Origin: a virus
Taxonomy: Duplodnaviria > Caudoviricetes
Direction: 5' to 3' (one strand)
IMG/VR virus record: IMGVR_UViG_3300047508_000126
Location: 1 to 61,879 of that record
DNA length: 61,879 bases
Shown: piece after piece, positions 42,543 to 61,879 of the stretch
Numbering within the stretch: the stretch's first letter is position 1
Layout: every line of letters begins with the position of its first letter
The notes under the pieces: generated by a model
Told to the model about the DNA's origin: nothing
What the model saw: only the letters and a program-made list of their open reading frames with translations
Database searches by the model: none
Program-made: the position numbers and the translations under genes

Positions 42543-42551
42543 CAGCCGATC

Positions 42552-42839: not shown

Positions 42840-42901
42840 CGCCGCATTCTAACGCTGGCGGAGCCTGATGCCGACCCGCTGTACGTGGAGGTGAGCGCGG
42901 C

Positions 42902-45061: not shown

Positions 45062-45073
45062 AAACCTGTGAGA

Positions 45074-45221: not shown

Positions 45222-45270
45222 CCCCGCTGCATCTTAACGAGGACCGGGAACCAGGACAAAGGAGTATCCG

Positions 45271-45471
45271 ATGGCACGCGTCATCACCTGCAAGGGCTGC
45301 GGGACCTCAGTCACCCTGTATGCAGATGAAGATCCGCACGCCGCGCTGACGTGCGGGTGCTGCGAAGAGGACCACCACCACGGGCAGGCCACCGAAGCCA
45401 CCGGCGTGCCCTGCCGGCCAGTCCACCACATCTACACCGGCCAGCTGGGCGCGCCGGGAACCGGAGGCTGA
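45271..45471 (+). CDS. small Cys/His-rich protein
   Basis: AAGGAG RBS; CKGC...CGCC..DHHH...CRP. Confidence 0.65.
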   Translation: MARVITCKGCGTSVTLYADEDPHAALTCGCCEEDHHHGQATEATGVPCRPVHHIYTGQLGAPGTGG

Positions 45472-45474
45472 CCC

Positions 45475-45924: not shown

Positions 45925-45982
45925 TGGCTGGTCAGAAGATATAAATCGAACAATCGAGCCTATAGAAGTTGAAGACAAGCTG

Positions 45983-45998
45983 TGCTATAGTTACTGTA
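45983..45998 (+). promoter_or_regulatory. extended -10 leaderless promoter of the HNH gene
   Basis: TGcTATAGT, ATG 6 nt downstream. Confidence 0.6.
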
Positions 45999-46948: not shown

Positions 46949-46972
46949 CGGCACGTAGACAAGGAGAACCCG

Positions 46973-47638: not shown

Positions 47639-47656
47639 GACGCCCGGGAGGGGGCC

Positions 47657-48421: not shown

Positions 48422-48540
48422 ACGAAGGCCGCGCCGAGGGGGTTGGCGCGGCCTCGCATCCCTTCCGATGTTGCGTGGCCCGCAATGGCGTACTTCTAGC
48501 GGAGCACGCCGCAGGCGTCCTGTAAAGAGGCGGAGGCCCA

Positions 48541-48849
48541 GTGGCACAGGTCGAACGCAAAGTCACGGCCAGCACGGGGGCGGCAGCGGTATCCGGGCTC
48601 GCGCTCTGGGCGCTTGGAACGTACGTGTTCAAAGGCGCTGTGCCGGATGTGGTGGTGTCCTGGACGTATGTGATCGTCCCGGCGGTGCTGACGTTCGCTG
48701 CGGGGTACCTCGCGAAGCACACGCCGCGGGGCGGCCCGGCCGTGCTGCCGGGCATCCCGTACGCGCCCGCATGGCCGCCCAAGACGCTGATCCCCCCGGA
48801 TCCGGCACCCCCGGCCGGGACACCGCAGCCTCCCGCCGCCCCGGAGTGA
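48541..48849 (+). CDS. holin
   Basis: VERKVTAST, two TM helices, AGYLAKHTPR; GGAGG RBS; upstream of the lysin. Confidence 0.75.
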   Translation: MAQVERKVTASTGAAAVSGLALWALGTYVFKGAVPDVVVSWTYVIVPAVLTFAAGYLAKHTPRGGPAVLPGIPYAPAWPPKTLIPPDPAPPAGTPQPPAAPE

Positions 48850-48934
48850 CCCGCCGCGGCGGGAGCCAGGCGGACACCACCCGATCCCTGCTGCCCCGGA
48901 CCCTGGCAGCCCTGGCCGCCTGAAGGGGGCTGCC

Positions 48935-49072
48935 ATGGCCTACTGCTGCCGCTGCGGCAACTGGGCCGCCCTCGAGCCGGACACTAAGATGTGCTGGCGC
49001 TGCCGTCTCGGCTGGCGGCCGTCCGCACCGGCAGGCCCCGACCTCGGAACCCGCAGGCAGCCGAGAGGCTAG
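48935..49072 (+). CDS. small Zn-finger peptide
   Basis: CCRCG...MCWRC, 45 aa. Confidence 0.4.
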   Translation: MAYCCRCGNWAALEPDTKMCWRCRLGWRPSAPAGPDLGTRRQPRG

Positions 49073-49353
49073 GGCTCCCAGTCCTGCAGGTAGTCTGGGT
49101 GATCGCTGTCGACGGCGGCGAGGTTCGGCAGCACGAAATCCTCATATTCCCGCGCCTGGTCCCTGGCCACCCCCGCCGGGTAGTCGTCGTCCTCCATCCG
49201 CGCCAGGGTGTCGGCGTACCGCGCCAGGATCATCCGCCCGGCATGGACCTCGCGGAGCACGCGAGCCCGGTTCTTAGCGGGCAGCCGGGCAACGCGGGCG
49301 AACTGCTCCTTCTCGTTGAGGCGGGCGTTCAGGAACGCCACTACGTCATCCAT
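49069..49353 (-). CDS. DUF6221-like protein (moron in the lysis cassette)
   Basis: MDD.VAFL.ARL.E...ARVLREV.A.R.IL...LA...DHPDY..DW.P. Confidence 0.75.
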   Translation of the reverse strand: MDDVVAFLNARLNEKEQFARVARLPAKNRARVLREVHAGRMILARYADTLARMEDDDYPAGVARDQAREYEDFVLPNLAAVDSDHPDYLQDWEP

Positions 49354-49391
49354 GCCGTCATCGTCTCACCCGCCGCGTCGTTAGGAGCCCT

Positions 49392-50156
49392 ATGACGATC
49401 GCCACCACCACAGTCTGCGACGCCATCAGGACCAATATCAGCCACCTCCCCAAAGGCCCCGCCGCCGGCTACACAACCGGCTCCGGGCCGGTGCCGTGGG
49501 GTCCGGCTGACTGGCGGGCGCACCCCGGCGCGGTCCGCATCTGCCAGGACCCCTCCGCCAGCGACACCACCGCCGACGTACTTGACGTCGAGGCAGGCGC
49601 TGCGACCATCCGTGTCGCCGCGCCCTGGGCTGAGGCCGCCGCCACCAACGTCGCCAGCGGCCGCAGACCCGGGCAGCGGCACCCCGCCGTCTACATGAGC
49701 CTCGCCAGCGTCACCCCCGTCGTCAACGCGCTGGCCGCCGGCGGGATCAGCTCCGGCGTGTCCCTGTGGGTGGCGAACTGGAACCTCACCTCCGCTGAGG
49801 CCACCGCGCTCGTCCAGCACGCTGGCGGCCCCTTCCCCATCGTGGCCGTCCAGTACCGCAACGCCGGCCTGTACGACGTCAGCGTGTTCAGCAAGCCGTG
49901 GCTGTCGGCCGTCTCCGGCGACCCGCCCGCACCGCCCCCGGCGAAGTTCCACGGCGAATGGGTCACCAAGGGGGAACTGTCCCTCGCCCAGCTCGCCGCC
50001 ACGTTCAGCCTGAAACCATCCACCCTGCTCCGCGAGACTGCCGTGCACTACGGCCAGTTCGGGCCCGAGCTCGCCGGGTACATCAACGCGGTCCACGACG
50101 GCACCCTGCGCGTCTCGTCACCGCTCCCGGCGGGTAGCAAACTGTGGGTGGACTGA
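49392..50156 (+). CDS. endolysin, GH25-like muramidase
   Basis: N-terminal Asp, LDVE motif, PAVY, LWVANW, AVQY, YDVS; adjacent to the holin. Confidence 0.7.
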   Translation: MTIATTTVCDAIRTNISHLPKGPAAGYTTGSGPVPWGPADWRAHPGAVRICQDPSASDTTADVLDVEAGAATIRVAAPWAEAAATNVASGRRPGQRHPAVYMSLASVTPVVNALAAGGISSGVSLWVANWNLTSAEATALVQHAGGPFPIVAVQYRNAGLYDVSVFSKPWLSAVSGDPPAPPPAKFHGEWVTKGELSLAQLAATFSLKPSTLLRETAVHYGQFGPELAGYINAVHDGTLRVSSPLPAGSKLWVD

Positions 50157-50236
50157 CAGGAGGCGACTGAGGTGAGACGACGGAACCAGCCCGAAACCCG
50201 GCACTGCGACGGCGGCGCATTACCAGCGAACAACGG

Positions 50237-50273
50237 GACCGGCCCGGGAGGCATCACGCCCCCGGGCCGGTTT
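50237..50273. terminator. hairpin between the convergent late and recombinase operons
   Basis: ACCGGCCCGGG...CCCGGGCCGGT followed by TT. Confidence 0.6.
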
Positions 50274-50281
50274 CCGCATGT

Positions 50282-50461
50282 TCAGGGGCCGGGGACTTCC
50301 TTGACGCCGAGGAACTGCAGGGGCGTCCGCTTGCCGGGATCGGTCCACCCGCAGCGCGGACAGGGGTTCTGCACCCCGTCGTGCGGGCAGTGGTTCGTGA
50401 TCCGCGAGTGGCCGCAGGCCGGGCAGGTGTACGGGTAGTCGAACGGGCAGTCGCAGTTCAT
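50282..50461 (-). CDS. small Zn-ribbon protein
   Basis: CPACGH...CPH...CPRCG; TGATG overlap with the recombinase stop. Confidence 0.55.
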   Translation of the reverse strand: MNCDCPFDYPYTCPACGHSRITNHCPHDGVQNPCPRCGWTDPGKRTPLQFLGVKEVPGP

Positions 50462-51456
50462 CAGGTGTCCTTTCTGGAGCCGAACCGGGTGGCGAGGACG
50501 TGGGCGGGGTGCCGGTCGAGGTTGTGGCGGGACCGGTCGTAGCGGCGGGTGGTGCGCGGGTCGGCGTGTCCCATGGCGTCCTGAAGGTCGCGGAGGTTCC
50601 CGCCGGCGTCGAGGTAGTCGGTGGCGAACGTGTGCCGCAGCGAGTGGGGTGACAGGTCCGGGGCGGCGGGGATGCCGGCGTTGCGGGCGAGGCGGCGTAC
50701 GAGGTCGTACAGGTACGGTTCGCTGAGCCTGCGGCCGGTGCGGGTGACGAACAGCAGCCCCCGGGCGGGGTTCCCCCGGGCGGCGAGGTAGGTGTCGAGG
50801 GCGTCACCGAGCGCGGGGACGATGGGGACCTTGCGGACCTTGCCGCCTTTCATGCGGACGGTCAGGGTGCGGTACCCCCGGTCATGGCCGAGATCCGTGA
50901 TGTTGGCGGTGAGCGCGGACCCGCAGCGGAGACCGCCGTACAGCAGGAGGCGGATGAGGGCGGACGAGCGGGGCCCGTCAGCGTCGGCGGCCTGGCACAG
51001 CCGGTCGGCCTCGGCGGTGGACAGGCCGACGGTCTCGGAGTTGTCGGGGTCGATGATGGGCCGGCCGTCGGTGTCGGCAGGGTTGGTGAACGCGAGCGGG
51101 CGGGGGTCGTCTTTGGTGTTGCGGTAGAGGTATTTGTACCAGGATGAGACGGCGGCGACCCTGCGGGCGATGCTGGCCTCGGCGGCGGGGCGGCCGTCGC
51201 CGCGGACGCCGTCCTGCCGCTGGGTGGCGATCCAGGCGTCCATGTGCATCATCCGGGCGGCCATCGGGCTGACGTGACAGTGGTCGCACCACCGCCACCA
51301 GTGGCCGAGATCCTGGCGGTACTCGCGCTGGGTGTTAGGGCTGCGCCGGGCGAGCCACGCGGCGGTGAGTGCCCTGATCCGGTCGGCGTCATCCGGCCAC
51401 GCGACGCCAACGTCAACGGCGGGGAGGACACGCCCGGACAGCTCAAGGTCAGTCAC
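50461..51456 (-). CDS. tyrosine recombinase (XerC/D-like integrase or resolvase)
   Basis: SPNT...Y SAM-like domain; catalytic GLR, KGGK, HSLRH, MGH, RRYD; no clear arm-binding domain. Confidence 0.93.
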   Translation of the reverse strand: MTDLELSGRVLPAVDVGVAWPDDADRIRALTAAWLARRSPNTQREYRQDLGHWWRWCDHCHVSPMAARMMHMDAWIATQRQDGVRGDGRPAAEASIARRVAAVSSWYKYLYRNTKDDPRPLAFTNPADTDGRPIIDPDNSETVGLSTAEADRLCQAADADGPRSSALIRLLLYGGLRCGSALTANITDLGHDRGYRTLTVRMKGGKVRKVPIVPALGDALDTYLAARGNPARGLLFVTRTGRRLSEPYLYDLVRRLARNAGIPAAPDLSPHSLRHTFATDYLDAGGNLRDLQDAMGHADPRTTRRYDRSRHNLDRHPAHVLATRFGSRKDT

Positions 51457-51605
51457 GGCTTCCACTCGGAGTGGCTCGCGTCTAGGTGGCAGTTGCACTC
51501 GCACCTGCGCGACGAGCAGGTGCCGCATTCACCGCGAGCGCACGCGGCAGACAGGGTGAGGCAGCAGCCCGGCAGGTGGATGCCGATGCGGTGCAGAATG
51601 CCCAT
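51453..51605 (-). CDS. small Cys-rich protein
   Basis: MGILHRIG...CECNCH; GTGA overlap with the recombinase. Confidence 0.4.
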   Translation of the reverse strand: MGILHRIGIHLPGCCLTLSAACARGECGTCSSRRCECNCHLDASHSEWKP

Positions 51606-51877
51606 AACCCGGGGCCAACGACCGTGACGCGGACTCGACCCCGGCGAGCCATCAGGGATTGATCCGGGCCGTGCACGGCGGGGTCGTAGTCTTCCGGGTC
51701 GACGCCGCCGCATGTCAGGCACATGTCTCCCTGGATGAGGCACGGGCTGCCGGGCCAGAACGCGGGACCGTGCATGCCGGGGTTCAGTGCTAGCCACGTG
51801 GTGAGGTAGCTGTCGTAGGCGTCTAGTTCGCACGGGACCGGGTGAACCGGCACGTAGTCCGGGAACAGGTCAGTCAT
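51482..51877 (-). CDS. hypothetical protein (3' end uncertain)
   Basis: MTDLFPDYVPVHPVPCELD...; overlaps the next ORF. Confidence 0.4.
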   Translation of the reverse strand: MTDLFPDYVPVHPVPCELDAYDSYLTTWLALNPGMHGPAFWPGSPCLIQGDMCLTCGGVDPEDYDPAVHGPDQSLMARRGRVRVTVVGPGLWAFCTASASTCRAAASPCLPRALAVNAAPARRAGASATAT

Positions 51878-52058
51878 GGTGGACGGCACATGCCGGGTTC
51901 TGCTCGATCAGGTGCCATCCTCCGCCGTCGAACCACGCCGGGCAGATGCAGCCCTCGGCGGCGAGGTTCCGGCCGGGAGCGTAATGATGCCGGCAGCCGG
52001 GCAGTTCGCAGCCGGATTCAGACGTTGCGGAGGCGAGGGCTATCTTAGCGTCATTCAT
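51870..52058 (-). CDS. small Cys-rich protein
   Basis: GGAGG RBS; GCICP...CAVH. Confidence 0.5.
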   Translation of the reverse strand: MNDAKIALASATSESGCELPGCRHHYAPGRNLAAEGCICPAWFDGGGWHLIEQNPACAVHHD

Positions 52059-52087
52059 GTTTTCCTCCAGTGTTAAGAGGGTGGCTG

Positions 52088-52276
52088 ATGCTTGTGTCTT
52101 GGGGCTGGGACGAGCCGGTTAAGTGCGCCGAGCATGGCTTGCTTACGAACGAACCGCTGGAGACCCACGACGCGGGAATCGTGGCGCTCAAGCATCTGCG
52201 TGACGTGCACGGCATGAGCGCGGAGAGTGCCGACGGTGCAATCGCGAAGGTGGAAGCCCACCAGGCCCAGACATAG
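52088..52276 (+). CDS. small hypothetical protein
   Basis: C..H...H....H motif; its 3' end overlaps a convergent ORF. Confidence 0.4.
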   Translation: MLVSWGWDEPVKCAEHGLLTNEPLETHDAGIVALKHLRDVHGMSAESADGAIAKVEAHQAQT

Positions 52277-52430
52277 GCTCGACGTCCGCATGCATTGCAC
52301 ACCACTCATGCTCGCCGATGTGCTCGTGGATGCATCCGGCGGTGATGATCTCGACGACCGGCATCGGGCACGGGCGGCGGTCGATCCGGTCGGAACCGCT
52401 GAAAGCGGTATAGCCGTCACAGGTTTTCAT
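52188..52430 (-). CDS. small Cys/His protein
   Basis: ATG 6 nt after a TAGACT -10 box; GCIHEH...C..H. Confidence 0.45.
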   Translation of the reverse strand: MKTCDGYTAFSGSDRIDRRPCPMPVVEIITAGCIHEHIGEHEWCAMHADVEPMSGPGGLPPSRLHRRHSPRSCRARHADA

Positions 52431-52483
52431 GCCTATAGTCTAACGTGCATTATCCCGTACCTTCGGGCGGCGCGCTTACCGGA

Positions 52484-52534
52484 TACTTGACGGCTACTTG
52501 ACAGGCCCCCCCTTGTGATGTAGAGTGATGCACA
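52484..52534 (+). promoter_or_regulatory. consensus housekeeping-sigma promoter, leaderless
   Basis: TTGACA (52498-52503), 17 bp, TAGAGT (52521-52526), ATG 7 nt later; tandem TACTTGAC x2. Confidence 0.8.
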
Positions 52535-52677
52535 TGGATGAACTACGGAGCGAGCGGTTCTCCGTCAGCCTCACCCCGTCCGCGCTGGCGAAGCTGGACG
52601 CCTACGCGGCGGAGCACCGCTGGACACGAAGCACCGCAGCCGCCGACCTGATCGAGCGCGGACTGGAAGAGGACTGA
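52534..52677 (+). CDS. CopG-like ribbon-helix-helix protein
   Basis: RFSVSLTPSALAKLDAYAAEHRWTRSTAAADLIERGL. Confidence 0.8.
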   Translation: MDELRSERFSVSLTPSALAKLDAYAAEHRWTRSTAAADLIERGLEED

Positions 52678-52680
52678 CCC

Positions 52681-53115
52681 ATGCCCGATGTGACCCACGA
52701 CCCCCGCGCCGAATCGCGCATCGTATCGTTCGACCTGATACCCAAAGACCCCGACTACTACTTCGTCCTGACCGAGGCGCTCCGCGAGTTCGCCGCCCGC
52801 CAGCACGCCGAAGCCGAGGATGAGGCCGAGACCGATCCGGCGGAGTCACGCTGGCGGTGGGCCAAGACCGCCGAGGCGATGCTCGACCAGATCGAGAAAA
52901 CACTGAGCGCGCCCGCCGCGGTGCCTGATGACCTGACCGCCTTTGAGTACGCCTCCGAAGAAGTAGGCGAGGCGTTCACCGAATGGTGCGGCAGCGAAGG
53001 CATCGAAGCGCGCGACGACCAGGAGTACCGGGTGATACGTAGCGCCTTCACGGCGGGCATGAACGAGGTAAGCAGGTACGTCCGGTTCCGCGAGATCATC
53101 GGGAAGGAGTCATGA
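52681..53115 (+). CDS. acidic hypothetical protein
   Basis: 144-aa ORF co-transcribed with the RHH gene. Confidence 0.65.
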   Translation: MPDVTHDPRAESRIVSFDLIPKDPDYYFVLTEALREFAARQHAEAEDEAETDPAESRWRWAKTAEAMLDQIEKTLSAPAAVPDDLTAFEYASEEVGEAFTEWCGSEGIEARDDQEYRVIRSAFTAGMNEVSRYVRFREIIGKES

Positions 53116-53208
53116 CCAACCCATGATCTGGCGTGTCCGGCTGGTCTGCATTATCCCGCGTTCCCCGTCCCTGACTGCCCGAGCCGCTAGCAGCACTAGC
53201 CTTGTCTC

Positions 53209-53439
53209 GTGCGTCCCTCCGACCTCGCCACCGCCAACCGCACCCGCGCCGAGCTCCACTCGGGAGCCGCCCGGAAGCAGCGGGAAGCAGCCGGAGTCAC
53301 CATGGCAGACATCGCTAGGGTCCTCGGCGTCACCAAACAGGCCGTCCACTACTGGGAGACCTACAAGTCCGTCCCCACCGTCGAGCACGCCCTCGCCTAC
53401 GGCCGCCTCCTCACCGCACTCACCCGGAAAGCCGCCTAG
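53209..53439 (+). CDS. XRE-family HTH protein
   Basis: REAAGVTMADIARVLGVTKQAVHYWET; GTG 6 nt after TAGCCT. Confidence 0.82.
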   Translation: MRPSDLATANRTRAELHSGAARKQREAAGVTMADIARVLGVTKQAVHYWETYKSVPTVEHALAYGRLLTALTRKAA

Positions 53440-53442
53440 CGC

Positions 53443-53970
53443 CTACGGGAAGTTCAGCCTCGCGAAAGCACCGAAGAACTCGCGTGCCGCAGCGTCATAG
53501 GCACGGGCAGCATCGTCCTCGTCAGCGAAGTACCCGAGATGCTTATAGTGGCCATTCTGTGTCATGTAAGCGCGCCATCTTCCGGCGGGCTTAAACCAGC
53601 CCACGCCCTTCCATCGCGAGGAGACAACTCGGCCGTCATGGGACCGGGCTTTGCGGCGGTTTCCCTGGTTCTGCCTGCCGGTGGCGGCCCGCAGGTTCGA
53701 CCGCTGATTGTTCAGGCCGTCGGTGTCTTCATGGTCGACATTGGAAGCGCCGGGCATCAGCAGCTGGTGCATCCACACGATGCGAGTGCGTCCGTCGTCA
53801 CGCGGCACGCTCGTGAAGGCGTACGGGCCGATCTTGCGCTGCCCATTCGAGCGCTGACGTTCCTGTACATTCCAGCGGTGCTGCATGACCAGCTCATAGT
53901 CGGCGTCATCAACCATGGCTACCCGCCCAGCCGCGACCTTGCCGTACAGCGGTACTGTCTTCACAGCCAC
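53443..53970 (-). CDS. HNH-AP2 homing endonuclease
   Basis: MH..L...VDH.D.DGLNNQRSNLR.AT..QN plus AP2 domain KGV.W...WRA....HLGYF...AARAYD.AA...FG.FA.LNFP. Confidence 0.92.
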   Translation of the reverse strand: MAVKTVPLYGKVAAGRVAMVDDADYELVMQHRWNVQERQRSNGQRKIGPYAFTSVPRDDGRTRIVWMHQLLMPGASNVDHEDTDGLNNQRSNLRAATGRQNQGNRRKARSHDGRVVSSRWKGVGWFKPAGRWRAYMTQNGHYKHLGYFADEDDAARAYDAAAREFFGAFARLNFP

Positions 53971-54047
53971 TCCTAGCTAGTGGTCAGGTCCGGGAGCAAC
54001 GGCGTTCCAGCGCCGCCCGGGCCGTTCTATTCTACCTGGTCAGATGA

Positions 54048-54080
54048 CTCAGCCCCGGCATGGAGAAGGCCGGGGCTGAG
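54048..54080 (-). terminator. hairpin downstream of the secreted-protein gene
   Basis: 12-bp IR CTCAGCCCCGGC / GCCGGGGCTGAG, flanked by a GGTCAGATGA direct repeat. Confidence 0.55.
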
Positions 54081-54101
54081 CGGAGAAGCTAGGTCAGATG
54101 A

Positions 54102-54941
54102 TCAGGGGCATAGCTGGTATGAGCCGACGTTCAGCAGGTCCGCCGGGTGGGTGCACCCCAAGACCGTCCACTCTTCCCACAGCGCGTCATGCCCCGGGAA
54201 CGCCAGCAGCCGCGACCCCGCACCCCCAGCACCCTGGATGTCGAGCACGTAGTCCACGTTGAACTTGTTCCGCAGGCTCGTGTTGATCAGCTCGAGGCCG
54301 TTCGACCCGATCGCGGGGGCCCATAGCTGCCACCGGTTCGCGTGGCTGAACGTGACGGCGTTCTCGGTGGGGGCGGCGGCGGTGTCGGTGCCGATGGTGA
54401 AGCTGCCGTTCGTGTTGCAGTTCCGGAGGACGGCGGCCCAGCGGAGCGCGCCGTGCGGGCCGACCGGCTGCTGGGTGACGGATACGCAGAAGTCGGTGGC
54501 GCCCGCGGTGAACGTCTCGCCGGGGGCGGGCTGCGACACGCCCGTCGGGCCGGAGACGTGGGTCCAGGACTGGATGTGGCCGAGGGGCGTGTACATGGCG
54601 ACGTACCGGCCGAGGTTGCCGGGGCCGCCGGTGATCGCGCCGGACAGCGCGAACACGGTGAAGTCCTCGCGGCTGTTGCCCTGAGAGTCGGCCTGGACGC
54701 CGACGGGGCTGTTGTAGTAGTTGCCGCTGGCGGTGCCGGTGCCGAGGACGGCCATGTCGAGAGTGCCGTGGGCGGTGTAGGCGGACTGGGCGCCGCCGCA
54801 TCCGATGGGGACGGTGACCGCCCCGGCGAGGTGGGTGCAGGTGAGGGTGGTCGCTCCGGCGCCGGTGGCCAGGCCGGCTGCGGCCAGGAGCCCGGCGGCG
54901 GCCGCGACGGCGGCACCCCAGATGGTGGTACGTCTGCGCAT
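54102..54941 (-). CDS. secreted protein, possibly ricin-type beta-trefoil
   Basis: signal peptide MRRRT..AGA; paired Cys; L.NC, QLW, VLDI, EEW motifs. Confidence 0.7.
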   Translation of the reverse strand: MRRRTTIWGAAVAAAAGLLAAAGLATGAGATTLTCTHLAGAVTVPIGCGGAQSAYTAHGTLDMAVLGTGTASGNYYNSPVGVQADSQGNSREDFTVFALSGAITGGPGNLGRYVAMYTPLGHIQSWTHVSGPTGVSQPAPGETFTAGATDFCVSVTQQPVGPHGALRWAAVLRNCNTNGSFTIGTDTAAAPTENAVTFSHANRWQLWAPAIGSNGLELINTSLRNKFNVDYVLDIQGAGGAGSRLLAFPGHDALWEEWTVLGCTHPADLLNVGSYQLCP

Positions 54942-55055
54942 TGCGGGTACTCCCGGTGTGTGGGGTTGTGTCAGGTTCCGGGGGTACCGTACCGCAACCG
55001 GGGTATCCCCCGGTTAGACGCGCCGGGATGTGTCCAGGTTGACACCCGCCGCTGG

Positions 55056-55325
55056 TCAGTCCGGCCACTCGCCGACATATGCGCGGTGGAGGGGCACATA
55101 CTCGCCGATGCGGTAGATCACGGTGCGGTTGACCGCGCGGATCTTCAGCAGGTCACCGTCATAAGTGGCGCACCCGGCTAGGTCCAACCACGCCGTGCGC
55201 GGGCCAGCGCCGTTGACGGCATCGAGCAGCTCGGCGGCGATGAGAACGCGCGGGTCGGCGCGGACGATGCGGAGGCCGCCATCCGCGAGCCGGGTCATGA
55301 TGCATTCACCGTCCACAACCCCCAT
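55056..55325 (-). CDS. hypothetical protein
   Basis: ADPRVLIAAELL...LKIRAVNRTVIYRI. Confidence 0.6.
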   Translation of the reverse strand: MGVVDGECIMTRLADGGLRIVRADPRVLIAAELLDAVNGAGPRTAWLDLAGCATYDGDLLKIRAVNRTVIYRIGEYVPLHRAYVGEWPD

Positions 55326-55331
55326 CCTCCC

Positions 55332-55493
55332 TCACGCCGCCAGCTGGCCGCCCTCACCCGGATCCGGCTCCAGGACCATCAGCTCCGCATCCGCCACATC
55401 CGGGACAGCCGGCGGCCGGCCCGTCGTGCACGCGTAACCGATCAGCCCGCACATCAGCGCGAAGTAGACGGCGAACAGCAGGAAGGGCAGCAC
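55332..55493 (-). CDS. small membrane protein
   Basis: GAGG RBS; one TM segment. Confidence 0.5.
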   Translation of the reverse strand: MLPFLLFAVYFALMCGLIGYACTTGRPPAVPDVADAELMVLEPDPGEGGQLAA

Positions 55494-55552
55494 AGCGCCT
55501 CACACGCGGGGTCCGGGCGTGACAGGTGGTGGCCGAGTGGCCGGGGATAATC

Positions 55553-55711
55553 CTACTGATCCGGCTCGGGCGGCTTGACCGCTACCAGCGTGTAGTCCTC
55601 GAACCCGACGTTCTCGTCCTCGCACTCCACACAGAACCCGTCACCGCCGAGGCCGAACGCGACCATCCCGCCGCAGCCGTTATGGAAGGCCCGGTACCCA
55701 GAATTAGTCAT
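55553..55711 (-). CDS. small Zn-binding protein
   Basis: H..CGG...CVEC; GGAGG RBS. Confidence 0.55.
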   Translation of the reverse strand: MTNSGYRAFHNGCGGMVAFGLGGDGFCVECEDENVGFEDYTLVAVKPPEPDQ

Positions 55712-55826
55712 CGTTGTCCTCCGGTGCGTGTGAGTGGTAGTACCAGACGGCCCACGCGACCACCAGCAGCAGCCCCGCGAACCACACAAAGTCAACACGG
55801 GGCCACCCGAACAGGTCACCCGTCAT
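55704..55826 (-). CDS. small membrane protein
   Basis: one TM segment, overlapping junctions. Confidence 0.5.
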   Translation of the reverse strand: MTGDLFGWPRVDFVWFAGLLLVVAWAVWYYHSHAPEDNDD

Positions 55827-56202
55827 CGCCGGCCTCTTCGGCGGCGGCCTCCGCGCACGTCCCGCACAGAGGACCGCGGCTGAGGTCCACGTCCGGGCTG
55901 CCGCAGCCAGGACACACCAGGCCGGGACCGTCCTCCCGGGCACGCTCGAGCAGCTCAGCCGACCGGCCCATCGCGATGTCATCGCTGACCCGCATCTCCG
56001 ACACCAGCCGGACCCGCATCACATGCAGCGCGGCGAGCATCTCATCGATCGCGGCCAGGGCGTCGCCCGCGGCGTGGCGGAGATGCGGCTGCGCCCTGGT
56101 TTCGTCGCGGGTCTCCCACTGGGCCAGGCCGACAGCCGCGACGCCTAGCATGTCTTCCAGCGAGCCCGTGTCGTAGGGGATGCGGTCCGTGGCGTCACTC
56201 AT
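55816..56202 (-). CDS. hypothetical protein with C-terminal CxxC pairs
   Basis: starts inside the conserved junction repeat. Confidence 0.65.
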   Translation of the reverse strand: MSDATDRIPYDTGSLEDMLGVAAVGLAQWETRDETRAQPHLRHAAGDALAAIDEMLAALHVMRVRLVSEMRVSDDIAMGRSAELLERAREDGPGLVCPGCGSPDVDLSRGPLCGTCAEAAAEEAGDDG

Positions 56203-56531
56203 GACGTGCTCCTGTCGTCGGGTGGCGGGATCCGGGTGACGCCCAGGATGAACCGGGCCATCCTCCCCGCCGCAGTAGACATGCCATGCTGCGCCCAGAA
56301 CCCCGCGCAGACAGCAGGGCCGAAGTCCGGGTGACCGCCATACGGGAGCGTGGCATGGCAGGTGAGAAGCGCCCCGGCGTCCACGTTACGGCGGACGACA
56401 TCCTCGAACCGGGCCTGCGTCAGGTGCATCAGCGCGCCGGGCCGGAAAATGCACGTGCCGCAGCGGCGAGACAGGACCCGGACCTGGCCGTCGTCGCCGA
56501 GCATATCGGTGGCGGCGCGGGCGTCACTCAT
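56199..56531 (-). CDS. Cys-rich hypothetical protein
   Basis: CGTCIFRPG...CH.TL...CAGF. Confidence 0.7.
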   Translation of the reverse strand: MSDARAATDMLGDDGQVRVLSRRCGTCIFRPGALMHLTQARFEDVVRRNVDAGALLTCHATLPYGGHPDFGPAVCAGFWAQHGMSTAAGRMARFILGVTRIPPPDDRSTS

Positions 56532-56773
56532 GTCGCGCTCCCGTCTGCGGCAGCCTTGGCGCCGGCCGGGGTGAGCCTGTAATACCGGCGGTGACTGTGG
56601 GCATCCTCCCAATCGCTGGTCACCCAGCCCACCCGCTCGAGCCACGCCAGCGCCGCGTAAATGCTGCCAGGCTTCAGCCCCGCAGCCTCGGCTATCTCCA
56701 GGCCATAGTGGTCCCGGTCCGGGTGCGCCAGGAACACGCCCAGGACAGCAGCCTTCCGGTCCGTCTCGCTCAT
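56528..56773 (-). CDS. PadR-like winged-helix regulator
   Basis: YGLEI...GL.PGSIY..L..LE..GWV.S.WE...RRYYRLT..G. Confidence 0.85.
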   Translation of the reverse strand: MSETDRKAAVLGVFLAHPDRDHYGLEIAEAAGLKPGSIYAALAWLERVGWVTSDWEDAHSHRRYYRLTPAGAKAAADGSAT

Positions 56774-56994
56774 GTCGTGCTCCTGTCTGCGGCGGCCTTG
56801 GCGGGATTTTCGGCGTGGCGGCAGCGGTCCCGCCAGTAATCGGAGTTGCTGGCGCTGACAACTATCGTGCAGGCGAGCAGGATGATCTCGGCTGTCGTGG
56901 CGGCATGGCCGCCGGTTAGCGCTGACACGATTACGCCTGCCATCAGCACCGCCATCACGGCGGTCCGCCAGTACTTCTTTATGAACGGGGTCAT
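56770..56994 (-). CDS. small two-TM membrane protein
   Basis: two hydrophobic helices. Confidence 0.65.
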   Translation of the reverse strand: MTPFIKKYWRTAVMAVLMAGVIVSALTGGHAATTAEIILLACTIVVSASNSDYWRDRCRHAENPAKAAADRSTT

Positions 56995-57884
56995 GTCGTG
57001 CTCCTGCTCTTGGCGCGGCGACGCTGGACGGTACGCACCGACACGTTGTCACGCGCCGCCTCCGCCTCAACCGTCAGTCTCGGCTTCACGGTGACGGGCT
57101 TGTCGCGGGCTGGCGGCGGGGGTGACACGGTGTCGTCCTGCGTGTCGTCCTGCGTGTCGCCGGGCATGTCACCCCCCGTTACCAGCGCAGGCGCGGCGGC
57201 CGGCGGGAACCGGCCGGCGATGGCCTCACCCGGCTTAGTCACCCCATGCCACGTCGCCCACGACATGACACGCACCGCCCGGACCGGATGCCACAGCCAC
57301 CGCGTCATCCCCAGCCTGACAGCATGCTTCTCCAGATCCCCGGTAGCCAGCAGCGCATCCCGGCTCACCCGCCGCGAATGCACCGACCACAGCCACGGCG
57401 ACGACACCGACATCAGCCCGAACGTCACCGCCGCGAACGTCGGCCGCCAATGTGGCGCCATCCAATGCGAGTAGTTCATCACCCCGATGACCAGCGCAAA
57501 CCCGTATGCGGCCAGCCGCAGCCGCAGGGCGCTGTCACCCGCGACCAGGGCGAGGTGCGCCTGCCACGCCAGGTAGACGGCCACGGACTCGAGGGTGACA
57601 GCGACCAGTACCTGACCCGCGAGGGGCCATGGGAGGTGGACGCGGAGGAACGCCATCTGCCCGCAGAACGCGACAGCGTTGACCAGGACGATGGGGACGG
57701 CGGCGAGCCACGGTAGCGACACGGTGAGGGCGGGGCTGCCGCGGCGAGGGTGTCGCCCGCGGCCCGCGTGCACTCGGTTGCCCCGCCTGTCATCCACCAT
57801 ACGGCGTCCGGGGTCGTCCTGCGGCATGGCCGCCGGCGGCCATGGGGGCGTGCCGTTGGCGTGCCCGTTCAACGTCGCCGTCAT
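56991..57884 (-). CDS. Spd-like (DUF2637-type) multi-TM protein with C-terminal HTH-like tail
   Basis: four TM helices, Pro-rich linker, AARDNVSVRTVQRRR; lies downstream of the traB-like gene as spd genes do. Confidence 0.65.
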   Translation of the reverse strand: MTATLNGHANGTPPWPPAAMPQDDPGRRMVDDRRGNRVHAGRGRHPRRGSPALTVSLPWLAAVPIVLVNAVAFCGQMAFLRVHLPWPLAGQVLVAVTLESVAVYLAWQAHLALVAGDSALRLRLAAYGFALVIGVMNYSHWMAPHWRPTFAAVTFGLMSVSSPWLWSVHSRRVSRDALLATGDLEKHAVRLGMTRWLWHPVRAVRVMSWATWHGVTKPGEAIAGRFPPAAAPALVTGGDMPGDTQDDTQDDTVSPPPPARDKPVTVKPRLTVEAEAARDNVSVRTVQRRRAKSRSTT

Positions 57885-58033
57885 GACGGGTCAGCCTTGA
57901 TTACCTCAAATGCCTGAACCTTCCTCATGATCGTCTCGTTCGCGACCCGCATCGCGTCGATCTCGTCGGCATAGACACCGATGATCTTTATGGTCCCGAG
58001 CATCGTCATCTCGAGCACTACGTGCACTGTCAT
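57881..58033 (-). CDS. small hypothetical protein
   Basis: VHVVLE...IIGVYADE.DA; AAGGGG RBS. Confidence 0.55.
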   Translation of the reverse strand: MTVHVVLEMTMLGTIKIIGVYADEIDAMRVANETIMRKVQAFEVIKADPS

Positions 58034-58137
58034 GCGTGTCCCCTTCGTGGCGGGAGTGGTGCCGCCCATCCTGCCCCCCGGCCGTGACGGAGCCGGGTAG
58101 GCCAGCCCTCGTGTCGCACCCGTTCATCGCCGTCCGT

Positions 58138-58263
58138 AACTGTCGCCAACTGTCCAGACTGTCCGCAGGAAGTGTCCAGATGGACAGTTCCTCGCGCGCA
58201 CGCGCGTACGCCTGCGCGCGTAGGGACACGGGACGGGACGCCCGCGGACAGTCCCGGACAGTT
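58138..58263. repeat. 8-bp repeat array, candidate clt (cis-acting locus of transfer)
   Basis: RACTGTCC-like copies at 58138, 58148, 58157/8, 58170 and inverse GGACAGTY-like copies at 58182, 58224, 58246, 58256, immediately 3' of the traB-like gene. Confidence 0.6.
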
Positions 58264-58264
58264 G

Positions 58265-60424
58265 TCACGCTGCGTTGACCTTCTGCCGGGCTTCCCGGGC
58301 CAGCCTGGCATTCCGCGCCTTGATCTCAGCTAGGCCCTGCCGGATGCTCATGCCGGGCACCGGGGCGTACTGACCGTAGCTGACCTGGGTGACATAGCCG
58401 ATCTCGAGCAGGGCGCCGACCTGATCATGGACCCAGCTGCGGCTCCGCCCGGATTCCCGGCTGAGGTCCCTCGGCGTTGCGGGGGAGTCCGCCGCCGCGC
58501 CCTGCAGCGCCTCAGCGAACCGTTCCTCCTGCCCGGCGATCACCTGGGGGAGACGCCTGACGAGCTCCGGGTCGGGGCGGAAATCATCCGGGACGCGGGC
58601 CATCAGGGCGGCACCGTCGGCGGCGATCCTGGCGGCGGCTTCCTGCCCGGTGCCGGCGCCGGGGGCGGGGGAGGGCACGGTCCCGGCGGCCTGCCGCGCC
58701 TCAGCGGCCACCGCCGCCGCGGCGTGCGGGGAGTCCGCGACAGCAGCCTGATACTGGGGGCTGATCGCATGGAACGCGTCGTCGAGGCGGAGCCAGCGGG
58801 TGTCCCACCATTCCTGCCAGGTGACATCCCGGTCCCCGGCCCGGAACGCGGTCTCAGCACCGCAGTACAGCCGCAGCGGCGGCCGGGCGCCGATCAGCGC
58901 CACGTTCTGCGCGGCGACCCGGTAGAACAGGTCGTGGTCCATCTTCGGGGCGCGGACCTGCTCCGGGAACATGTCCGGGCCGTCCTTGATGTAGCAGGTG
59001 CCCTTTTCCTCGAGCCGGGACGCGTCGAGCCGCTGGTACTCGGGGATCACGTAGGCGCCGTGGCGGGCCTCCGCGACCCGGTAGGCGACACGGCACAGCA
59101 GGTTCCCGCGGGTCTGCTCGGTCTGGACCGATTCCTCCAGGGAGCCGTTCTGGGTGTAGACCTCCACGTAGCCTTCCAGGCCGCTGGCAAGGCTGGATAC
59201 CAGGGCGAGCAGCTTCGCGCATTCGCTGTCCCCGTTCGCCGCCGAGGTCAGGCCGTGGGTCTCGTCGATCATCGTGTGCAGCGCGGGGGTGTCCTCGTCG
59301 GCCAGGAGCTGCTCATCACCGGTGTAGGCGTACTTGGCGCGGGCCTTCCCCTCGGCCACGGCCATCCGCAGGTACGTCCGCGCCTCGTCGATCTCGGTGA
59401 TCACGTACTCGGCGCTGGCGGCTTTCAGGACCGGGCGGGCGGACCGGCCGCCCTTCAGGTCAATGAGGATCTGCCGGTCATCCCGGCACCCGGACAGGCC
59501 GGCGAGGCGGACGAGCAGGTGGTTGCTCTTCCCGGTGCGGGTGGCGCCGATGACGAAGCAGTTGACCCGCTGGGAGAGCATCTTCCACGCGCCCGTCTCG
59601 GACTTCCCGATCGGCGCGGCCTCGTGGACGGAGCGGGGGGCGAGGCTCATGTCGTACTCGATGATCTCGCGGAGCGGGTTCTCCTGCTTCAGGAAGATGT
59701 CGACCTCGGACGGGTACCCCTTGACGGGTTCGATGCGGACGAGGCCGATGTCGGCGTGGCCTTCGGCGGCCGATTCGATCAGCGGGAGGGCCTGCCGGAA
59801 GTGCTGCAGCGTATGGAGGCCGGGGATGCCCCTGACCCTGATGCGGAGGGTAACGCCAGACACCTGCGCGTCCTTCGCGAACGAGCCGCCCAGGTTCCAC
59901 CGCCAGCAGTGGGACTGCCACCACGTGTCGGCCTGGGCGATGAGCCGGTCCCGTTTACGCTGCCCCCTAGGGCGTTTGTGCCGCCACCAGAAGAACCCCC
60001 ACGCGGCACCCCCGGCGGCCAGGGTGCTGGCCAGGACGATGCCGGTCACCTCGCCGCTGAGCGGGCCCGCCGTGGAGGCGGCGATGAGCCACAGCACGGC
60101 CCCGATGACGGACAGCCGGGCATACCAGACCTCTGGTTCCCGGTCCCATTTGTGCGGGGCGAAGTAGCAGACGGCGACAGCGAGGATGATCCCGGCGCCG
60201 GCGACGTAGCCAGCGAGATACGCCTGGTAGAACACCAGGCCGGCCAGCCACATGACGGGCGGGATGGCGAGCGGGACGGTGACATGCCCGTTCCGCCGCA
60301 CCCACCGGGCGATCGTCTTGACCGCCGCCTCGGACTCGCGGGGCTTGTCCTGCGGCCACGGCGGCGAGGCCACGGCGGCGGGCGCGTACCCGGACGGGCT
60401 GAGCACGATTTCCTTGCCGGACAT
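58265..60424 (-). CDS. traB: TraB-type FtsK/SpoIIIE conjugative DNA translocase
   Basis: four N-terminal TM helices, Walker A GATRTGKS, LIDLKGG, Walker B MIDE, C-terminal wHTH with GRSRSWV recognition helix. Confidence 0.85.
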   Translation of the reverse strand: MSGKEIVLSPSGYAPAAVASPPWPQDKPRESEAAVKTIARWVRRNGHVTVPLAIPPVMWLAGLVFYQAYLAGYVAGAGIILAVAVCYFAPHKWDREPEVWYARLSVIGAVLWLIAASTAGPLSGEVTGIVLASTLAAGGAAWGFFWWRHKRPRGQRKRDRLIAQADTWWQSHCWRWNLGGSFAKDAQVSGVTLRIRVRGIPGLHTLQHFRQALPLIESAAEGHADIGLVRIEPVKGYPSEVDIFLKQENPLREIIEYDMSLAPRSVHEAAPIGKSETGAWKMLSQRVNCFVIGATRTGKSNHLLVRLAGLSGCRDDRQILIDLKGGRSARPVLKAASAEYVITEIDEARTYLRMAVAEGKARAKYAYTGDEQLLADEDTPALHTMIDETHGLTSAANGDSECAKLLALVSSLASGLEGYVEVYTQNGSLEESVQTEQTRGNLLCRVAYRVAEARHGAYVIPEYQRLDASRLEEKGTCYIKDGPDMFPEQVRAPKMDHDLFYRVAAQNVALIGARPPLRLYCGAETAFRAGDRDVTWQEWWDTRWLRLDDAFHAISPQYQAAVADSPHAAAAVAAEARQAAGTVPSPAPGAGTGQEAAARIAADGAALMARVPDDFRPDPELVRRLPQVIAGQEERFAEALQGAAADSPATPRDLSRESGRSRSWVHDQVGALLEIGYVTQVSYGQYAPVPGMSIRQGLAEIKARNARLAREARQKVNAA

Positions 60425-60449
60425 GGATCACTCCAGAGAAAAGGGCGGG

Positions 60450-61295
60450 TCAGCGGGCGCCGGACTCAGACAGTTCCTGATGGTGCGGGGCCTGCCGCGG
60501 GGACTTCGCCAGGTCACCGACCGTCATGTTGATCAGCGTCGAGATGGCCGCGTCGGCTTCGGACAGGGACATCGCGGCGGCCTGGTGATGCTGCCCCGCC
60601 TGCCCGAGGGGCTCGGTGATCTCCGGGCCGTAGTTCTGGCCCGGCTCGGACATCTGCCGGGCGAGCATCTGCACCATCGCGGCGAACCGGACCGACCCCT
60701 CATGGGCGGCCTTGACGGCTTCCTGCTTGGCGTGGATGCCGCCGGCCTGGGCGTGGGCGTGGATCTCGTTGATGCCCTCGATGAGCTTCTCCGCGCTGGC
60801 CGTGCTCGTTCCTGCTGCCACTGGGTTTCCTCCGTTATATCTGGGTTTGCCGCCAGCCCCGTAATTGGGCGTCGCTATATTGCCGGGAGTTCCTGCCACT
60901 GGGTTTCCTCCGTTAGTGCTAGGCGGTGCTTGCGGCGGCGGGGACGCGGCCGGGGTGGACCGGGTGAGCCGCTGGCGCAGGGTCTGCCTCGGCGGAGCGG
61001 CCGCCGTGGTGGTGCCGTTCGTGCGGGCGTGACGCTGCTGCTCAATCCAGTCCGTCGTAATCGCCTGCGTCCACAACCGGTGCGCGTCGGCTTTCGCCTG
61101 GGCGCGGATAGCGGCAGCCGCCGACCGGATGGGTGTCCGGCCCGGACCCGGGGACCGGGACTGACCGCGGGGCGCCGGAGAACGCGACCGCATCCCCTTG
61201 GTCCGCGGGCCCGTCCACGCGCGGCGGCGGGCATCCTGGATGGCCTTGTTCGCGAAGTACGCGCAGACGACTACGACGATGATCCCGAGCAGCAT
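60450..61295 (-). CDS. transfer-associated protein in the TraA position (N-terminal TM, C-terminal helical domain)
   Basis: directly upstream of traB; two internal GGAGG+GTG sites within a 23-bp direct repeat. Confidence 0.65.
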   Translation of the reverse strand: MLLGIIVVVVCAYFANKAIQDARRRAWTGPRTKGMRSRSPAPRGQSRSPGPGRTPIRSAAAAIRAQAKADAHRLWTQAITTDWIEQQRHARTNGTTTAAAPPRQTLRQRLTRSTPAASPPPQAPPSTNGGNPVAGTPGNIATPNYGAGGKPRYNGGNPVAAGTSTASAEKLIEGINEIHAHAQAGGIHAKQEAVKAAHEGSVRFAAMVQMLARQMSEPGQNYGPEITEPLGQAGQHHQAAAMSLSEADAAISTLINMTVGDLAKSPRQAPHHQELSESGAR

Positions 61296-61297
61296 GA

Positions 61298-61762
61298 CTA
61301 ACCCCCAGCCCACGTCGAGATACTCGACACGACATGCTGCGCCGGCGCGGCGGTAGCCACGAACAGGTTGTGGGCCGCGCCCGCCGGGGCGAGGGCGAAG
61401 ACAAGCGGGGCGGCCAGCGCAACATAGGCGTACTGCGCTGACGGCGACCAGATCAGCGCCACGATCACGGTGGCAGCCATCGCCAGCGCCGCAAGAGTGA
61501 TCAGCGCCCATCCCAGGCCGCTGCCCGGCGCGGTGGACGCGCCGACAAGACCGAAAGCGCTCTCGATATGGGAGATGACCCACTGGCCGCCGGGGGTGAG
61601 GACCGCGACGGCACCAGCGCAGTACATGCCGATGATCACGAGGCGGTGCAGCCACGGGTGAGTGCCGGACGGCAGGTGGTTCAGGTGGCGGAGCAGCAGC
61701 CAGCACACCCCTGCCGTGACGAGCGCGACACCTGAACCGACCAGGGAAACGATCCCGCTCAC
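61298..61762 (-). CDS. four-TM membrane protein of the transfer region
   Basis: 154-aa hydrophobic ORF coupled to its neighbours. Confidence 0.7.
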   Translation of the reverse strand: MSGIVSLVGSGVALVTAGVCWLLLRHLNHLPSGTHPWLHRLVIIGMYCAGAVAVLTPGGQWVISHIESAFGLVGASTAPGSGLGWALITLAALAMAATVIVALIWSPSAQYAYVALAAPLVFALAPAGAAHNLFVATAAPAQHVVSSISTWAGG

Positions 61763-61879
61763 GGCTTATCCCCGATCTTCAGGCCGTCGTCGTAAGCGAA
61801 CGGGCGGGTCGCCTCATCGCGCGGCGGTGCTGGTACCGTCGTCCCCCCCGCAGCTGGCGGACGCTGCGGGGGGCCGACG
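61759..61879 (-). CDS. 3' part of the gene spanning the circular junction
   Basis: reads VGPPQRPPAAGGTTVPAPPRDEATRPFAYDDGLKIGDKP*, GTGA overlap with the next gene. Confidence 0.55.
   Translation of the reverse strand, partial: VGPPQRPPAAGGTTVPAPPRDEATRPFAYDDGLKIGDKP

Follow-up and report, generated by a model that had tools for sequence, protein, structure and literature searches.

Streptomyces plasmids such as pSVH1 and pIJ101 carry the closest described counterparts of the locus studied here. According to Thoma et al. (2015, mBio, PMC4447253), TraB and the clt site move the plasmids, clt sites are direct 8-bp repeats, and spreading within the recipient mycelium requires the Spd membrane proteins. 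The same text remarks that SpdB2 homologues on the actinophages phiC31 and VWB might help to spread phage DNA. Integrative and conjugative elements of actinomycetes (AICEs) are recognized, in Ghinet et al. (2011), by an integrase (Int), a Rep protein and a Tra protein. We analyzed the virus record IMGVR_UViG_3300047508_000126, a tailed-phage sequence of 61,879 bp and ~69% G+C that is called the window below. On its minus strand lies an operon with a gene for a membrane-anchored FtsK/TraB-type ATPase (58265–60424) and, directly behind the ATPase stop codon, a predicted cis site (58130–58264, no strand assigned) of mirrored repeats around a GC-rich core. We give roughly even chances to the reading that this module is a phage-borne, self-addressed pump for double-stranded DNA (dsDNA) that moves the phage genome across a membrane-bounded barrier or septum.

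What was observed in support of this reading is homology, a shared order of domains, a cis site that covaries with the winged helix of the ATPase, and recurrence in independent phage genomes. A membrane-anchored FtsK-type ring, a site-specific winged helix and a site on the same genome together point to a device for moving that genome. The window had been inspected before from its letters and open reading frames (ORFs) alone. That sequence-only reading described a tailed phage with a TraB/clt/Spd-type conjugation module. As an observation it was confirmed, and its interpretation, possible movement of the whole phage circle between hyphae, was partly supported.

Comparison with described systems

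The module resembles the TraB/clt/Spd systems of Streptomyces plasmids and AICEs, among them pSVH1, pIJ101 and NZ_CP108178, an 18-kb Streptomyces rolling-circle replication plasmid. The translocase combines a membrane anchor, an FtsK-like motor and a C-terminal winged helix. Element-specific short repeats lie by the 3' end of its gene, and after the translocase come first a small ORF and then a membrane protein in the DUF2637/SpdB position. No relaxase was found (one family was searched, and no type IV secretion families). The differences are also clear. The window module sits on a tailed phage with terminase, portal and capsid, not on a plasmid or AICE with a Rep gene, and its repeats, instead of being direct, are set in mirror orientation about a conserved GC core. 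In the place of a GntR-type TraR there are WhiB and PadR genes, two further conserved membrane proteins are encoded upstream, and the ATPase is too distant for tblastn to connect it with plasmids.

Chromosomal FtsK with KOPS (FtsK orienting polar sequences) and dif, and SpoIIIE, share the motor fold, an N-terminal membrane domain and a winged helix for a motif of the 8-bp class. Unlike these systems, the window has its motifs in one local site and not in genome-wide skew, and hhalign covered only 153 columns of the motor.

The nearest isolated phage is Streptomyces phage Hiyaa (Hiyaavirus, 83 kb), a tailed phage in which gp102, annotated as 'FtsK DNA translocase', and gp98, a DUF2637-like membrane protein, are encoded a few kb apart. 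Hiyaa gp102 fell in the wider clade of our tree, but it shares 31.7% identity with the ATPase over just 19% of its length (144 hhalign columns), the gene order differs, and a k-mer scan revealed no comparable repeat site at the Hiyaa translocase gene. Phage Spocter matched both proteins, and phages Keanu and Galactica matched the membrane protein only. A literature search found no functional study of the Hiyaa translocase. The remark on phiC31 and VWB concerns a spread protein alone, with no translocase, cis site or conserved cassette.

Streptococcal tandems of a phage and an integrative and conjugative element (ICE) transfer by a relaxase and type IV secretion. The conjugative prophage Phi1207.3 and such tandems set a precedent for a prophage moving by conjugation; the tandems are joined phage and ICE units transferring together, and neither they nor Phi1207.3 are a single dsDNA pump encoded by a phage.

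Literature searches, with subscription journals and supplementary files outside their reach, found no paper that describes or tests a tailed-phage translocase of the TraB type together with its cognate site. New here are a phage-native TraB/clt/Spd-like module, a mirrored and co-evolving site, and the extra conserved membrane partners. FtsK-like genes in Streptomyces phages, SpdB2-like phage genes and a PHROG family for such proteins were already known. The idea itself is less novel than the sequence-only reading had it, since the Hiyaa annotation and the SpdB2 remark of Thoma et al. (2015) precede it.

Sequence, homologues and fold of the ATPase

The ATPase has 719 residues, and its assignment rests on fold, hhalign and PHROG 31069, a family labeled 'FtsK/SpoIIIE-like' that it matched at 6.9e-11. 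Walker A (GATRTGKS, residues 293–300) and Walker B (MIDE, with D387 and E388) were invariant in 26 homologues. The AlphaFold model (mean predicted local distance difference test score 80.5) consisted of four N-terminal helices (residues 46–149), an alpha/beta motor and a winged helix at residues 651–688. Alignment and model together bore out the transmembrane (TM) helices, both motifs and the C-terminal winged helix that had been proposed from the letters. Foldseek placed the TcpA coupling protein first (3.5e-16), followed by a dsDNA-bound FtsK motor (3.7e-15), and EccC, HerA and viral packaging ATPases ranked well behind. The protein thus has the motor fold of the FtsK/SpoIIIE-HerA superfamily with both Walker motifs. 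A packaging ATPase of the PRD1/STIV2 membrane-phage type was rejected, as the fold match to B204 was merely 5.7e-5 and the genome has its own large terminase subunit (TerL).

A phmmer search of the single ATPase against the PDB returned chance TM matches only. Among the candidates scored, 191 homologues were found at E ≤ 0.001, nearly all metagenomic; among the matches listed, 2 of 120 had an NCBI source. A profile built from 26 homologues reached 1,059 cluster representatives at E ≤ 0.001.

Three family members (P0025, P0064 and P0085; 1070–1087 residues) contain a LAGLIDADG intein. Its position was aligned in P0085 alone, where it interrupts the Walker A loop after GK and before S/T, corresponding to residues 299/300 of the window protein (~59527–59530). 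The P-loop is a favored intein site because it cannot drift.

Relationship to plasmid Tra proteins

The family profile was compared with several translocases by hhalign. The best agreement was with Tra of NZ_CP108178 (98.6%, E 9.4e-16, 437 columns), in an alignment spanning the pre-motor domain through the winged helix. Tra of pIJ101 aligned over the pre-motor domain and motor (90%, E 1.4e-6, 309 columns). E. coli FtsK aligned over the motor only (94.8%, E 5.1e-8, 153 columns), and Hiyaa gp102 around the Walker A/B region (95.8%, E 6.9e-9, 144 columns). At E 0.01, the ATPase matched no Pfam model of the FtsK N-terminal membrane, alpha or gamma domains. The AlphaFold model and hhalign agree on the TraB domain order of membrane anchor, FtsK-like motor and C-terminal winged helix.

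For a motor-domain tree, 45 rows were used, selected for their similarity to the query, and the tree was computed with the quick method of IQ-TREE. The family fell within a clade with two Streptomyces large-plasmid proteins and Hiyaa gp102 (SH-aLRT, the Shimodaira–Hasegawa-like approximate likelihood ratio test, 95). This clade was split from the outgroup of E. coli FtsK and two EccC-like domains with a modest SH-aLRT of 80. Tree and hhalign both grouped the family with plasmid Tra rather than with FtsK or EccC, as had been predicted, within the limits of a small outgroup and a quick tree.

Gene order told the same story. In the plasmid NZ_CP108178, Tra is followed in turn by a 96-residue ORF and a DUF2637 protein, and the order in pIJ101 is tra, spdA, spdB; in the window, a 62-residue ORF and a DUF2637-type protein come after the ATPase. 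Sequence comparison supports the view that the ATPase belongs with the Tra/TraB-type translocases of Streptomyces plasmids, not with chromosomal FtsK or EccC.

Two other kinds of conjugative element were considered. A type IV coupling system of the TcpA/VirD4 type did not fit, as a six-frame search of the window detected no MOB relaxase PF03432, the sole relaxase family searched. The sequence-only reading had also seen no AICE features. An AICE would carry RepSA, RepAM or Prim-Pol beside Int and Tra. The window has one integrase, a six-frame search found no Prim-Pol, no long direct repeats were found flanking the module, and no Rep family was matched in the subset of left-arm ORFs scanned. This part of the claim held; for Rep_1 the six-frame search was uninformative, its control being silent.

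In the Tra regions of two Streptomyces plasmids, loci L019 (5882–6592) and L088 (7851–8303), a gene labeled 'Pycsar system effector family protein' immediately adjoins that of the DUF2637-type or large membrane protein. It could be a real defense gene or a mislabeled spread protein.

A mirrored repeat site behind the ATPase gene

The gap between the ATPase gene and the 62-residue ORF is 195 bp long and holds the repeat site. On the left, two ACTGTCC copies (58246–58262) follow the stop codon on the gene's strand. The GC-rich core (58190–58222; TACGCGCGCAGGCGTACGCGCGTGCGCGCGAGG) is preceded by a G+C-rich spacer. A palindromic pair comes next, and then the right repeats (58138–58189), three to four copies in the opposite orientation. 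ACTGTCC has nine exact copies in the 61.9-kb window. Five lie within 58149–58262, and the other four lie elsewhere without skew. The array is real and non-random, as the sequence-only reading had held; its description as an 8-bp array needs correction, as the unit has a 7-bp core and is mirrored around a GC-rich center rather than simply repeated in one direction. A simple promoter and terminator scan of the site gave nothing relevant.

The site was then compared across loci. Forty-eight loci, the window included, had enough sequence and gave 40 distinct downstream sequences. The GC core lay 40–67 nt past the stop codon in 37 of these; in the other three the extension to the stop was unreliable. 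A strict mirror-repeat test (at least two copies on the right, at least one inverted copy on the left and zero same-sense copies on the left) was passed by 23 of the 40. In an alignment of 33 downstream sequences, the CAGGCG center was invariant and a CACGCACAGTGACC box was conserved ahead of the next gene's ribosome-binding site. A k-mer cluster scan of Hiyaa, pIJ101 and the plasmid loci revealed no convincing comparable site at their translocase genes.

The repeat itself varies by locus, the forms being GACAGT, GAACAA, GGACGA/GGACAA, GGACAT, GGACAC, GTGGACT, GGAGG, GGAAA and CCGGAA. The window and L023 (76% identical to it) have the winged-helix pattern GRSR[ST]W...SYGQY and GACAGT repeats. 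In L022, whose overall identity to the window is 78%, the pattern is GRGRTW...SRGQY and the repeats are GAACAA. Partial Mantel tests were performed on 27 distinct loci. The repeat k-mer spectrum correlated with winged-helix distance (residues 650–690) when motor distance was controlled (r = 0.41; 0 of 5000 permutations), whereas with motor distance, given the winged helix, it did not (r = −0.03; 3138 of 5000 permutations). Good but not final evidence thus suggests that the winged helix reads the repeats.

Recurrence in other phages and in sequenced genomes

The loci collected were 9 viral, 56 metagenomic and 1 from a metagenome-assembled genome (MAG); cassette and site plan recur in 65 loci other than the window. 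The genes upstream of the ATPase were highly conserved. Homologues of the helical protein were present in 44 of 46 evaluable loci, those of the four-TM (4-TM) protein in 31 of 32, and WhiB homologues in 27 of 28. A downstream polytopic membrane protein was encoded in 31 of 43 loci (not de-duplicated), belonging to cluster c0 in 19 and to cluster c1 in 12. One c1 member matched DUF2637 at 3.4e-12. By hhalign, c0, c1 and the window's DUF2637-type protein were linked through their C-terminal 20–36 residues only, not through their membrane parts. In eight related loci, a YdjM-type inner-membrane protein gene follows that of the downstream membrane protein (for example L021:6142–6852, Pfam 9.1e-19); none was found in the window.

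Viral genomes carrying both TerL and the translocase cassette, which had been proposed as a check, were found. Besides the cassette, G002 (97.8 kb, 127-bp terminal overlap, rated 100% complete) has a TerL, a portal, a tape measure, a serine integrase and a repressor-like regulator of its own. In G001 (98 kb) and G003 (131 kb), both rated complete, TerL lies 4–11 kb from the cassette. No relatives of the window's TerL or capsid were found in G001–G005. The presence of the cassette in complete phages with unrelated virion genes indicates a mobile module of the phage gene pool. The suspicion of a chimera or of an independent AICE was dispelled by abutting record ends and the cassette in complete phages: the module is native to phage genomes, with no adjacent AICE and no chimeric join.

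Sequenced genomes gave few matches. A pattern scan of 185,579 species genomes found a close relative in one, an uncultured Actinomycetota MAG, and the same MAG was the sole match in a profile scan of 401 sampled Actinomycetota genomes. On contig C236 of this MAG (G007; loci L016, L090 and L091), the ATPase relative is split into frames of 212 and 328 residues and may be a decayed copy.

Proposed function and competing explanations

In a pump of this kind, the winged helix would read the 7–8-bp repeats behind the ATPase's own stop codon. The ATPase would most likely assemble as a ring on the cis site, and the ring would thread phage dsDNA through a membrane or septum, which could be a hyphal cross-wall, a neighboring-cell junction or a sporulation septum. 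The genome would spread without virions, as TraB, clt and Spd proteins move Streptomyces plasmids. Purely by inference, the mirrored arrays would suit two rings leaving the site in opposite directions with the two arms of the circle. Hexamer formation, DNA pumping, the barrier crossed, the direction of transport and a fitness benefit are what we infer. Virion-free spread appears plausible from this analysis, and inter-hyphal transfer would be only one of several possible uses, others being cross-wall spread and spore loading. A stronger version is that these are true 'conjugative phages', lineage-spanning temperate tailed actinophages with a second, virion-free route, in which a self-addressed TraB-like pump with a phage-specific clt-like site would export the whole double-stranded genome across septa or cell junctions to neighboring compartments or cells, two rings loaded at the mirrored arrays taking both arms of the circle over together. 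We hold this version possible, at clearly less than even chances.

If the pump acts on the phage genome, neither lysis nor adsorption nor receptors would be needed for phages to spread in filamentous or septate actinomycetes. This would change the view of host range, of resistance based on receptors, of how hyphal compartments contain plaques and of how prophages spread in soil. The boundary between phage and conjugative element would also blur, in a group in which one protein suffices for conjugation. Whatever the function, dozens of natural protein/site pairs with differing 7–8-bp specificities form a data set on how FtsK/TraB winged helices read DNA. Hiyaa, which grows on S. lividans, is an isolated relative that makes the question bench-testable.

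A number of results weigh against a TraB-like pump. The ATPase scored below the Pfam PF01580 FtsK_SpoIIIE cut-off (11.6 vs 24 bits; no match at E 0.01), a model matched by 27 of 38 of its distant relatives. NCBIfam gave no match to it, and neither did tblastn against 72,556 plasmid records. The tree is limited by its quick method, small outgroup and query-similar rows, and Mantel tests are liberal for related sequences. The repeats are mirrored, whereas those described for plasmid clt are direct 8-bp repeats. The window's own DUF2637 and DUF7336 matches were both sub-threshold, and BLASTP of the DUF2637-type protein against pIJ101 SpdB and the plasmid DUF2637 protein was not significant. A GntR-type TraR was matched by none of the 10 module proteins scanned, PadR and WhiB being present instead. 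The host may not be filamentous, and literature searches (subscription journals and supplementary files aside) found no experiment on any family member.

The same architecture occurs in FtsK and SpoIIIE (Foldseek). Such a pump could clear or load replicating or excised phage DNA at the host's own division or sporulation septa, passing it on to daughter compartments or spores, with no recipient involved. The mirrored repeats recall oriented guide motifs that converge on one site, and the cassette is headed by a WhiB-family gene; this family is tied to septation and sporulation in actinomycetes. However, the family profile aligned far better and over a greater length with plasmid Tra than with FtsK. 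The repeats occupy one 130-bp site, with four copies elsewhere and no skew, unlike genome-wide guide motifs, and an integrated prophage needs no such help. We consider a role of this kind, segregation or trapping at host septa, unlikely.

The position of the site also has to be explained. The ribosome-binding site of the next gene is immediately downstream of it, a conserved CACGCACAGTGACC box is present, and the operon includes WhiB and PadR regulators. On a regulatory reading, the repeats would serve the winged helix as operators for control of the membrane-protein genes downstream, and the targets of the ATPase and the membrane proteins would be the host envelope, cell division or incoming competitor DNA, in host take-over or exclusion, not the phage genome; the PHROG category of the nearest family is 'moron, auxiliary metabolic gene and host takeover'. 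A membrane-tethered translocase with a winged helix and a co-evolving self site, however, has the look of TraB/clt or FtsK/KOPS and not the build of a repressor. The simple scan found no promoter-like site in the region, and PADLOC gave no notable defense match. Such a regulatory or take-over role is improbable in our judgment.

Clusters of short repeats beside the gene of their binding protein are typical of iteron origins, in which case the ATPase would be an initiator or helicase. The center of the site is extremely GC-rich (CGCGCGCA-type), with no easily melted AT-rich stretch, and the ATPase has three to four TM helices and the fold of an FtsK/TcpA dsDNA pump. A replication origin is therefore very improbable.

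Hardly credible is an artefact, whether a chimera made in assembly or a prophage with a plasmid or AICE beside or within it. In its favor, the record comes from a metagenome and is labeled 'linear' and 57% complete, with a step in Logan contig depth from ~15 to ~12.5 near 50.56 kb. Against it, the cassette halves split by the record ends fit (274 bp vs 236–341 bp in six relatives), three complete phage genomes whose virion genes differ carry the same cassette, there is one integrase with no Prim-Pol and no relaxase of the one family searched, and Logan contigs tile 42150–61842 without mismatch, if not independently of the assembly.

Other genes of the module

The sequence-only reading had placed the module at 56991–61879. 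All genes it named in a contiguous leftward run were found on the minus strand; the module proved larger, and it extends across the record ends up to WhiB at 583–897. In order of transcription, it comprises WhiB, p142, the 4-TM protein, the helical protein, the ATPase, the repeat-site gap, the 62-residue protein, the DUF2637-type protein, a 74-residue protein and PadR. Most of these genes overlap a neighbor by 4 bp. All are on the minus strand.

The first conserved gene of the cassette (583–897) encodes a WhiB-family transcription factor (Pfam Whib, 1.4e-24). The next, p142 (158–586), encodes a conserved protein of 142 residues with homologues in eight related loci and no match in Pfam, PHROG or PADLOC. 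The 4-TM protein (61298–61762, 154 residues) had four hydrophobic segments in a hydropathy scan and no family match in Pfam, PHROG or NCBIfam. The TM/helical protein (60450–61295, 281 residues, best start ATG at 61295) has one N-terminal TM segment. In an alignment of 20 sequences, a low-complexity linker followed the TM segment, and the conserved helical C-terminal domain ended in SPRQAPHH.ELSE. In the ESM Atlas, the helical and 4-TM proteins fell in unnamed Uroviricota/Actinomycetota clusters only. A complex predicted between ATPase residues 155–560 and the C-terminal domain of the helical protein scored 0.00, which gives no verdict either way.

Downstream of the site, the 62-residue protein (57881–58069) matched DUF7336 below threshold (Pfam 4e-5, 23.8 bits vs a cut-off of 25). 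The DUF2637-type polytopic membrane protein (56991–57884, 297 residues) occupies the position of SpdB in the plasmids. It stands where the predicted Spd-like protein was expected, although its DUF2637 match was sub-threshold (5.2e-4, 20.4 bits vs a cut-off of 22.8). Like the downstream membrane proteins of the relatives, it ends in a short C-terminal tail resembling a helix-turn-helix. Its tblastn matches were in 70 plasmid records, 66 of them from Streptomyces, and in four Streptomyces phages. The 74-residue protein (56770–56994) has two hydrophobic segments, and its gene overlaps both neighbors by 4 bp. The last gene (56528–56773) encodes a PadR-family winged-helix regulator (Pfam PadR, 3e-10, above cut-off). 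NCBIfam matched no module protein other than PadR. PADLOC detected no defense system, just a marginal P-loop match (mad8, 0.0091) and PadR-type matches.

Genome ends and layout

The record is labeled 'linear' with a CheckV completeness of 57%. WhiB and p142 lie at its left end, and the 4-TM gene lies at its right end. In related loci, p142 homologues stood directly before the 4-TM gene in 8 of 8 cases, and WhiB stood before p142 in 7 of 8; in the eighth, L026, the contig ends before WhiB. The p142-to-4-TM gap was 236–341 bp in six related loci by match coordinates (leaving out L041, a repeat of L040), L026 having ~330 bp. If the window's ends were joined, their terminal pieces would give a gap of 274 bp. 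Each end was also aligned separately to L022, and no room was left for missing sequence. Judged from sequence comparison, the window is a closed, permuted circle and a complete genome of ~61.9 kb whose two ends abut. For a closed genome, the label 'linear, 57% complete' is probably an understatement, and the completeness figure probably arises because the nearest relatives by shared genes are 98–131-kb phages. The record opens in a G/C homopolymer-rich stretch (1–60), which probably broke the assembly.

Three soil DNA runs were found for the sequence, one of them its probable source and the other two with small shares only; no RNA run was listed. Logan contigs from the probable source run covered 42150–61842 with zero mismatches at a depth of 10–14.5, consistent with one molecule, though not independent of the assembly. 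Near 50.56 kb their depth drops from ~15 to ~12.5. Within the 3' part of the integrase gene (50512–50629), short contigs of two other soil runs matched with 0–2 mismatches, two at a depth of ~8 and others at 3–5, and the contigs of the source run break there too. This match may mark either an attachment core that a host sequence has in common with the phage or variation between strains. No near-identical DNA was found in the phage collection.

Because the record has ~69% G+C, reading frames were picked by G+C at codon positions together with a codon model. A temperate tailed phage of an Actinomycetota host is the best explanation of the window. Its virion module (18065–42311, plus strand; PHROG matches of 4.1e-35 to 1.1e-15) encodes, all on the plus strand and assigned by PHROG, TerL (18065–19651), portal (19878–21353), protease (21346–22353), major capsid protein (22346–23827), head–tail adaptor (32025–32870), tape measure (36109–39102) and minor tail protein (39102–42311). 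Terminase, portal, an HK97-type capsid with its protease and the tape measure place the phage in Caudoviricetes. The full head, tail and lysis set that the first inspection had seen stood for head and tail; for lysis, no endolysin or holin family was detected among the candidate proteins scanned, and candidates at 47657–48421, 49392–50156 and 42902–45061 had no match in PHROG, Pfam or PDB. The tyrosine integrase (50461–51528, minus strand; PHROG 1 at 1.7e-46) is the sole one in the record, a six-frame search with PF00589 giving a single match. No tRNA was found in the window, and Rfam returned a single chance miRNA match on 55000–61879.

Read as a circle, the genome has a lambda-like layout: a divergent control region at ~1.6–1.9 kb, rightward early genes, virion genes, the integrase and the leftward module operon. 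Four CCGTCTA copies (1774–1851) in the intergenic region between the divergent operons are candidate operator sites. PHROG profiles also identified a DNA methyltransferase, two HNH endonucleases and a glycosyltransferase. The HNH genes lie at 45998–46948 (plus strand) and 53443–53970 (minus strand), and one is fused to DNA-binding domains. The glycosyltransferase-like protein of 475 residues is encoded among the head genes (24941–26368, plus strand; PHROG 2.5e-18). Also in the virion region, a 718-residue ORF with no family match (29715–31871, plus strand) lies in a stretch of ~77% G+C and contains, especially at 30426–31616, ~17 copies of a degenerate 54-nt (18-residue) tandem repeat.

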